64,000 nt of DNA from the NCBI GenBank assembly GCA_051313645.2, contig JBNRSN020000052.1, positions 6,572,001 through 6,636,000 on the forward strand. Reading direction: 5' to 3'. The position numbers and the translations under genes were made by a program. This document shows, piece by piece, positions 30,917 through 31,853 of the stretch (positions within the stretch are counted from its first letter, which is position 1; every line of letters begins with the position of its first letter). The notes beneath the pieces were generated by a model. The model saw nothing but the letters and a program-made list of their open reading frames with translations. It made no database searches and was not told where the DNA came from. The stretch comes from Centroscyllium fabricii. Its lineage: Eukaryota.

Positions 30917-31853
30917 CAGGTTGAGCACCGTTAATCCGGCACGGGCGGGACCAGGCCCGTGCCGGGAAATGGAAAAAACCGGGAGAACGAGTTTGGACAC
31001 TGCGCATGCGCACCAGTCAAAATGGCAGCGCGCATGCGCGCAACATTGGTATTGGCTGTCGCGCGCATGCGCAGATCGTCCAATATTGGCCGCCGCGAAG
31101 TTTTTTGATGGGCTCAGGCTTTTGTGGCTGTCGGGCAGCAGTGAAAGGCCGGTCTTGTGGGGGGAGGCAGGAGGGTGGCGCGGGTCGGGGGGCGGGGAAG
31201 GAGGGTGGCGCGGCGCGGGTCGGGGGGGGGGGGGGGAAGGAGGAAGGCGCGGGTCCGGGGAGGGGGGGGAAAGGATTGTGGCGCGGGTCGGGGGGGGGAA
31301 AGGATTGTGGCGTGGGTCCGGGGGTGGAAAGGAGGGTGGCGCGGGGGCAATTTATCCAATCCCGTTTTGCTTTCAATTGTAAGAGGTCACACGGCGCTAG
31401 GCTGTGGTCCAACGGTTTTAGTTGGGGTCACGGGCTTTCGGAGCGCTGCTTCCCCGTCAGGTGATGGGGGAGCGGCGCTCCGAAGGCTCGTGATTTCGAG
31501 TGGGACTTTTGGACTACAGCCTGGTGCTGTGTGGCTTCTTACAATTGTCCATCCCAGTCCAACACCAGCACCTCCACATCATGGCTTCAATTACAGTTAT
31601 CGATAAAATAACCGGCGGCCGTATTGAATTATCTGCGCATGCGCTAACCTTCCGGCGACGCATGCGCAGATCATTCAAAACACCCGCAGCTGTTTTGAAT
31701 GATCTGCGCATGCGCTCGGCGCATGCGCAGATCATTCGTTGAAGCCACGATGGCGGCTGCCATTTTGCGCATGCGCAGTGCAGTCGGGGCAATTTGTGCC
31801 GGCAGACTGAAGCTGCCGGCTATTCGGTTACCGGATTAACGGTGCTCAACCTG
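30917..31853. mobile_element. Tigger/pogo-like MITE with G-rich and Penelope-derived insert
   Basis: Perfect 23-bp TIR CAGGTTGAGCACCGTTAATCCGG, TA target-site duplication. Confidence 0.92.

Follow-up and report, generated by a model that had tools for sequence, protein, structure and literature searches.

A Penelope-type hairpin with same-strand A>G changes in both arms

The window analysed here is a 64-kb stretch of the 7.2-Gb genome of Centroscyllium fabricii, and it contains a transposon that carries a hairpin (Table 1). The hairpin arms are two copies of a ~130-bp repeat terminus placed head to head, with an unpaired tail behind them, and folding indicates that the inverted repeat is real (z = −15). 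In its unedited form this terminus is very common, with 56,706 exact matches to a 35-nt core genome-wide, and the nearest subfamily motif has 11,642 matches in the genome.

Table 1. Coordinates of the transposon, the hairpin and related repeat termini within the window
Feature	Position	Strand	Remark
Non-autonomous DNA transposon, MITE-like, 937 bp, carrying the hairpin	30917..31853		TA at 30915-30916 and 31854-31855
Left TIR, 23 bp	30917..30939	+
Right TIR, 23 bp	31831..31853	-
G-rich tandem tract	31159..31345	+	length varies among copies
Transposon's own ~25-bp stem	31659..31714		no A>G relative to sister elements
TSD of Penelope-type insert, left copy	31368..31378	+	degenerate in the window; perfect 11-bp repeat in most older-subfamily copies
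Left arm	31374..31461	-	antisense copy of the Penelope-type terminus
Left-arm A>G (n = 12)	31385, 31393, 31394, 31396, 31404, 31406, 31414, 31425-31427, 31432, 31433	+
Left-arm T>C	31402, 31453, 31454		also 31447 in most copies
Right arm	31462..31547	+	sense copy; minimal-hammerhead-like and AATAAA motifs, both altered
Right-arm A>G (n = 11)	31467, 31468, 31474, 31485, 31498, 31500, 31502-31504, 31519, 31534	+
Right-arm T>C	31489, 31517, 31527		also 31488 in most copies
Penelope-type 'tail', unpaired	31548..31585	+	A>G at 0/9 As
TSD of Penelope-type insert, right copy	31582..31592	+	overlaps the end of the tail
Unedited Penelope-type terminus, the reference	53955..54084	+
Further unedited termini	5199-5322, 10796-10886, 53203-53327

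Inverted truncated copies with a one-sided tail and a TSD are frequent in the family, the window locus included, and an inverted 5′-truncated copy with a one-sided tail of 30–40 bp matches the Penelope-like insertions described in PMC8557442 and PMC11167929. In longer copies, a GIY-YIG-like frame ends 319–472 nt upstream on the same strand (seven loci), and Pfam returned GIY-YIG at a score below the cut-off (E = 0.012) in one of four pieces. By eye, the parent terminus shows CUGANGA, one extra base, a 5-bp helix II, GAAA and a palindromic end, a minimal hammerhead layout of the kind described in PMC4209133; Rfam gave no match in the window and none at the reference terminus. The insert resembles Penelope-like elements, as portrayed in these three accounts, in its inverted truncated 5′ copy and its tail, and apparently also in its minimal-hammerhead-like motif and the GIY-YIG-like upstream frame of longer copies. 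It differs from them in being a non-coding 212-bp remnant, with both arms mutated, that has been moved by a DNA transposon.

We scored substitutions in the window against the majority of 82 unedited family copies. Relative to this reference there are 12 A>G changes in the left arm and 11 in the right, on the + strand throughout, together with three T>C changes in each arm, each facing an A>G site in the opposite arm; the duplex also has four other changes at non-polymorphic sites. Significance tests were computed on the majority of 43 transposon copies, in which the same 23 A>G are present. A>G affects 23 of the 48 duplex As and none of the nine tail As (Fisher p = 0.008), compared with a family background of 20/1,836 (binomial p = 1.7e-32), and ordinary family copies have at most two A>G each. 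The first-pass annotation of this DNA had read the locus by eye as a head-to-head inverted repeat with ~12 and ~11 + strand A>G changes in its arms, ~6 T>C changes opposite such sites and a tail free of A>G, and these counts bear it out, as they do its premise that the A>G excess is significant and confined to the duplex. It had also remarked that many surviving As follow a G. In this hairpin alone such a bias is not significant, with 3 of 10 As after a G edited and 20 of 38 otherwise (p = 0.29); it does emerge when other loci are pooled (see below). A check that needs no consensus showed 19 G·T and no A·C pairs in the hairpin, whereas 12 ordinary family hairpins have 25 G·T and 19 A·C pairs.

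A parent subfamily carrying the changes common to both arms was considered and rejected: the plain G-rich form had three matches, two of which are transposon copies, which rules out the distinct subfamily that the first-pass annotation had named as the alternative to editing. The same letters occur in contigs of runs X1 and X2 (two studies, either of which could be the assembly's own sample). As at least 2,575 genomic copies as well as these contigs carry G at the sites, an assembly artefact, the other alternative raised there, is also excluded. The suggestion that editing destroyed both hammerhead cores fares less well. In the right arm A9 and A15 are indeed G, but C3 was lost at the inversion junction, and in the left arm A9 became G through one of the later T>C changes.

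Two further observations concern unedited copies. The terminus at 5199–5322 of the window lies next to a TCP-1/cpn60 chaperonin exon (4988–5107, + strand; Pfam PF00118, E = 4.5e-9). The arms of ordinary head-to-head insertions (L061–L090, L184–L189) often differ at subfamily-diagnostic sites (for example, L066 and L189), as if two templates had been copied.

The hairpin is carried by a multi-copy TIR/TA transposon

TA flanks the right end of the element in 30 of 30 copies and the left end in 29 of 30. Both ends have it in 27 of the 28 unselected copies that have both TIRs (30 examined), and at locus L044, where the element sits in a known sequence, the TA is seen to be duplicated. Between the window and the 29 nearest other copies fetched, 2 of 221 bases differ. 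Junction probes gave 1,361 and at least 2,575 copies, and the wider transposon family has 7,437 matches; G was found at the probed site in 100/100 among the matches listed for the 1,361-copy probe. Across the hairpin, 39 major-family copies diverge by 0.74%. As the carrier is a multi-copy TIR/TA element, the window copy arrived by DNA transposition and the edits are older. The retro-insertion originally proposed for the window site therefore did not take place there; it would have occurred a single time, at an earlier date, in a founder.

Sister elements of 531 bp are without the insert. Compared with 10 sisters, the transposon body shows A>G at 0/92 As in two segments, its own ~25-bp stem included, and the TIRs are unedited, which makes it less likely that hyper-editing as RNA affected the element as a whole. 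In a sister subfamily (L168, L178, L179) the cargo is another Penelope-type palindrome, unedited and with a TSD of its own, so carriage in the transposon does not in itself create A>G changes. DDE_1 transposases are abundant in the genome; among the 20 loci cut out, of 150 matches, none could be tied to the 23-bp TIR. With its short TIRs, TA duplication, lack of a reading frame, many near-identical copies and variable captured middle, the element resembles Tc1/mariner-pogo-type MITEs with captured cargo; unlike in these, the cargo here is an edited retroelement hairpin.

Older relatives of the TIR/TA family, with different middles, lie in the window at 917–1290, 1425–1817, 12940–13580 and 25804–26286. 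Another sister transposon subfamily (L159, L167, L172) has amplified a second imperfect palindrome, and at L133 an element of ~700 bp with inverted ends interrupts the left arm of one copy. Beyond the transposon, 32246–33811 is a tandem array of a 54-bp unit (29 copies, 97% matches).

Other hairpins carry paired-arm A>G changes with an ADAR-like signature

We searched the genome with a probe in which two A>G changes were forced in the AATAAAA run, excluding the transposon and using the same probe with A>C as a control. Genome-wide, among 56,706 unedited arms, the A>G probe gave 43 matches and the A>C control one, and 38 of the 43 had at least two further Gs. Same-strand A>G changes in both arms were seen in 16 rows, representing 15 distinct loci and 12 independent sources. 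Among the other rows, 20 had no inverted arm within 1.5 kb, three were changed in one arm, and four combined an A>G arm with a T>C arm. L247 was left out for want of an anchor, and L216/L233, L229 and L246 were left out as duplicates. At the 15 loci, A>G affects 323 of 810 paired As but 8 of 232 As in loops and tails. The spectrum of changes comprises 323 A>G, 14 T>C and 26 others (323/363 A>G).

With one member per source (12 loci) and left arms not selected by the probe, the edited fraction by 5′ neighbour was 0.55 for U, 0.50 for A, 0.31 for C and 0.17 for G. In the pooled unselected arms, As after a G were edited in 8 of 48 cases and all others in 115 of 273 (p = 6.5e-4), so that here the avoidance of a 5′ G that the window hairpin alone could not establish is significant. 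A family of retrocopies described below gave the same order (U 0.63, A 0.54, C 0.21, G 0.13). A preference for a 3′ G was not seen in the pooled hairpins (p = 0.65). Both the order and the level of editing fit published ADAR values, given in PMC3113232 as U≈A>C>G, with 50–60% editing in duplexes longer than ~50 bp. Such preferences cannot tell ADAR1 from ADAR2. The genome has A_deamin exons at five loci, a domain that also occurs in ADAT1 and ADAD proteins.

Some of the remaining rows deserve mention in their own right. At L224, L228/L229 and L202 the inverted arms lie far apart, one with A>G and its partner with T>C, equivalent to sense-strand A>G in both, a pattern that would fit two primings on edited sense RNA. 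L197, L198, L206, L217, L222 and 15 others have no inverted arm within 1.5 kb, and many of them are strongly A>G-changed; at L206, 27 of 65 As are G without a nearby pairing arm.

Changes in the transposon lineage came in stages

A contig of run X10, from another organism, has a partly edited left arm, and a probe for this state gave 181 matches in the Centroscyllium fabricii genome. Nine of 10 fetched copies were usable (L311, a minus-strand pick, was dropped). They belong to the same transposon family, and most have a perfect 11-bp TSD. They are more diverged among themselves than the major family (1.22% versus 0.74%), and we refer to them as the older subfamily. Their majority has 19 of the 23 A>G changes and none of eight T>C changes, indicating that the changes came in stages; as these copies also have private changes, they form a sister lineage of the first stage and not a literal ancestor. 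The T>C changes noted at first pass therefore do lie opposite A>G sites but belong to a later stage. The transposon bodies of the older subfamily are mosaic, so the module has moved between bodies. Upstream of the hairpin, the older subfamily (L303, L304) has captured ~280 nt of AT-rich sequence.

Eight T>C changes, four more A>G changes and one other duplex change fall on the branch that leads to the major family. All eight T>C lie opposite first-stage Gs (8/19 versus 0/29, p = 2e-4), and all four late A>G precede a G (p = 0.018). In the first stage, only 2 of 8 sites with a 5′ U were edited. The predicted folding energy of the + strand goes from −132 to −159 kcal/mol across this branch (parent −161), so that the predicted pairing was restored. 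In the other hairpins, T>C facing edited sites is rare (6/319 versus 4/455), and the second stage is therefore peculiar to the window lineage.

For the origin of the T>C changes, editing of the opposite strand and DNA repair have about even chances. G·U on the + strand is an A·C mismatch on the − strand, a favoured ADAR substrate, so editing of an opposite-strand transcript at such mismatches would neatly account for T>C. The second reading accepts ADAR for the A>G changes and places the later T>C at the level of DNA: in an extruded or snap-back hairpin, G·T or A·C would be repaired or converted arm-to-arm to G·C, and the four extra A>G would reflect a second round of + strand editing or would have disappeared from the older subfamily. 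GC-biased repair is known to occur between the arms of palindromes. Repair of G·T in DNA explains T>C in fewer steps than an antisense passage, since no extra RNA passage is needed, and it agrees with the position of every T>C opposite a first-stage G. It also fits the unedited transposon body, which leans to repair: the unedited stem and TIRs sit uneasily with the repeated RNA passages that opposite-strand editing would entail. In addition, 2/100 among the older-subfamily matches listed already have C at 31402. However, the patches are single bases, with donor arms alternating 1–3 nt apart; no remaining G·T site shows T>C in at least two of 43 copies; and ongoing correction is absent from the nine older copies and amounts to 6/319 in the other hairpins. 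Moreover, counted on either strand, 12 of the 13 duplex changes on the branch are A>G, and the four new + strand A>G share their 3′ G. Patches of one base each, a burst of changes confined to a single branch and correction that is no longer under way lean to ADAR, for which A·C mismatches are favoured sites in hybrids according to PMC12925331. Overall, we rate the DNA-level reading of the second stage slightly below an even chance.

The junction of the older subfamily gave eight empty-site matches, which may be either pre-insertion copies or precise losses, and no unedited filled copy with this junction was found in the genome. This pattern would slightly favour the insertion of RNA that was already edited. 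Major-family junction probes for an empty site and for an unedited precursor, which are blind to the older subfamily with its different junction, gave none of either; one returned six unrelated Penelope copies. No founder retrocopy of the module was found.

Some edited hairpins at other loci lie in probable retrocopies

Five probe matches have in common one hairpin, the sequence on either side of it and a SINE downstream. When the search relied mainly on the unedited flank, it returned 14 anchored loci, 12 of them distinct. These copies have staggered 5′ ends, and 10 of 12 end at a common short 3′ repeat tail. They show A>G at 15, 0, 8, 23, 17, 10, 13, 10, 10, 25, 14 and 18 of 41 sites, so that 11 of 12 are edited, compared with 0–2/62 in their flank; seven of the eight copies that the probe had missed are edited as well. 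No two of the nine patterns compared are identical, and three pairs are nested. Retrocopies of independently edited transcripts would be expected to look like this. A second source is represented by edited L263 and unedited L264, which have in common a bounded segment of 3,795 bp (98.8% identity). The segment ends at a SINE/LINE-type tail, of greater length in L263, and 13 of the 17 A>G lie inside the arms. The 3.8-kb copy showed no evident TSD. Sources were traced in these two cases; a third attempt, from the L190 flank, landed in a repeat and was uninformative. The hallmarks of LINE insertion are well established, and judging from their ends the supporting retrocopies were probably made by a LINE enzyme. 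They carry the old Penelope TSD along, and the TSD therefore does not tell which enzyme wrote the edits.

Together, these data suggest, in our judgement with high probability, that ADAR edited a hairpin dsRNA, that reverse transcription brought the edited sequence into germ-line DNA and that a DNA transposon then amplified it. The family often leaves head-to-head arms with a tail and a TSD. A read-through transcript would have folded such a fragment into a duplex of ~85 bp, in which ADAR would have turned ~40–50% of the paired As into inosine while sparing tail, loops and flanks. A reverse transcriptase would then have copied I as G, a pattern seen at the other loci, where the copies have LINE-type ends. 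For the module itself, the edited sequence may have entered an empty transposon site by Penelope priming at the tail, or a filled site may have undergone LINE-type copying, and the step stays conditional here because neither an unedited filled precursor nor a founder retrocopy was found. The 19-site state was amplified (181 matches), and the lineage with four more A>G and eight T>C was amplified further (at least 2,575 matches), with opposite-strand editing in between at about even odds. The independent loci and the older subfamily thus support the first-pass view that edited hairpin RNA was written into the germ line in more than one stage. Its reading of the locus as a record of ADAR is upheld by the editing signature, but what ADAR edited was likely a Penelope-type fragment, already dead, within a read-through transcript, so that the hairpin is not necessarily a record of ADAR editing an active element. 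No function is evident for the module, which is probably functionless and a record of germ-line RNA editing.

A more far-reaching version, which we hold only tentatively and as clearly less probable than its negation, is that hyper-edited RNA was routinely retrotransposed in this germ line. The module would then have passed through RNA at least three times and on both strands, ADAR would first have created G·U pairs and then edited the A·C mismatches that these gave on the opposite strand, restoring the hairpin as a GC-richer duplex, and the cut-and-paste lineage would have been re-founded repeatedly from edited RNA. If routine retrotransposition were true, the genome would hold a readable fossil editome.

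It is improbable that the edits were written in place without a new insertion, whether through repair templated by RNA or through ADAR editing of the DNA in an RNA:DNA hybrid. Edited hairpins do keep canonical ends and TSDs (an exact repeat of at least 8 bp around 12 of the 15), and both ADAR editing of dA in hybrids and RNA-templated repair appear in the in vitro reports of PMC12925331 and PMC10209271. However, the edited copies traced in the two source cases are bounded, 5′-truncated duplicates with a SINE/LINE-type tail that have carried the old TSD along, and editing in hybrids would not be limited to self-pairing arms.

Least probable of all, with hardly any weight in our judgement, is that no editing occurred and that the pattern goes back to divergence of a Penelope subfamily, to error-prone reverse transcription, to ordinary mutation or to an artefact of the assembly. 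Amplification has in effect turned the sequence into a subfamily consensus, and A>G transitions are frequent among background changes. Against this reading, the arms change in opposite directions in element sense, which no single subfamily consensus gives; no plain subfamily has the shared changes, and ordinary copies stay at two A>G or fewer; the 43 matches against one for the control, the confinement to paired bases, the ADAR context and the agreement of independent contigs all stand against it; and under dual priming on a sense RNA, error-prone or edited, one arm should show A>G and the opposite arm T>C, as in 4 of the 43 rows but not at the window locus.

Relation to known records of editing

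The A-to-G hypermutation of avian retroviral DNA is said to come from cultured cells. As summarized in PMC12925331, it concerns the U3 region of Rous-associated virus and an inverted repeat of avian leukosis virus (Felder 1994; Hajjar and Linial 1995). There too, nearly 50% of As in the inverted repeat became G, which was seen after reverse transcription and attributed to ADAR. That case is viral, whereas here the changes lie in animal genomic DNA, in non-viral fragments at dozens of loci, with one copy amplified to thousands. The accounts of APOBEC-edited endogenous retroelements in PMC4866542 (Knisbacher and Levanon) and PMC2873906 (Zaranek et al.) likewise describe genome-fixed, strand-biased clusters of one type of change, with a traceable unedited source element and a host deaminase on record. 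In contrast to their G>A changes on LTR-element cDNA, the present changes are A>G, limited to an RNA duplex and located inside a DNA transposon. Other mismatch clusters are given as negligible in PMC4866542, where DNA transposons serve as the negative control, and PMC2873906 mentions A-to-G clusters as enriched in RNA traces and not in DNA traces. Hyper-editing of inverted repeats in transcripts, as presented in PMC4365171, PMC3113232 and PMC5663115, has the same clustered A>G at paired sites, depletion after a 5′ G and conversion of about half of the As in duplexes longer than ~50 bp. It is normally a difference between RNA and DNA, whereas here it is inherited in DNA. A transfer of RNA editing into DNA is discussed as a hypothesis in PMC10209271. 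Our literature search, whose scope lay outside subscription journals and supplements, found no report of ADAR-edited retro-insertions fixed in an animal genome. The precedents found were the laboratory retrovirus and APOBEC only, and an earlier description may exist.

A-to-I editing is usually regarded as dying with the RNA; here it appears to have been inherited, with internal controls in the form of source and daughter pairs and of many differently edited copies of one transcript. RNA editing would thereby be a direct and testable source of clustered germ-line A>G mutation, and the scars would preserve, one molecule at a time, how active and how specific ADAR was in past germ cells or early embryos. 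With 11 of the 12 copies from one source edited, edited duplex RNA can evidently stay a substrate for retrotransposition. In screens for editing, DNA transposons would not be a clean negative control, and a repeat subfamily rich in A>G can go back to one editing event that another element has amplified.

The SINE copies downstream of L243 (= L231), L244 and L245 and in the right flank of L211 also look heavily A>G-changed. SINE sites of the 12-copy comparison were kept out of the counts because the ancestral call is biased. The A>G-rich SINEs in these edited retrocopies suggest edited SINE insertions as a further class.
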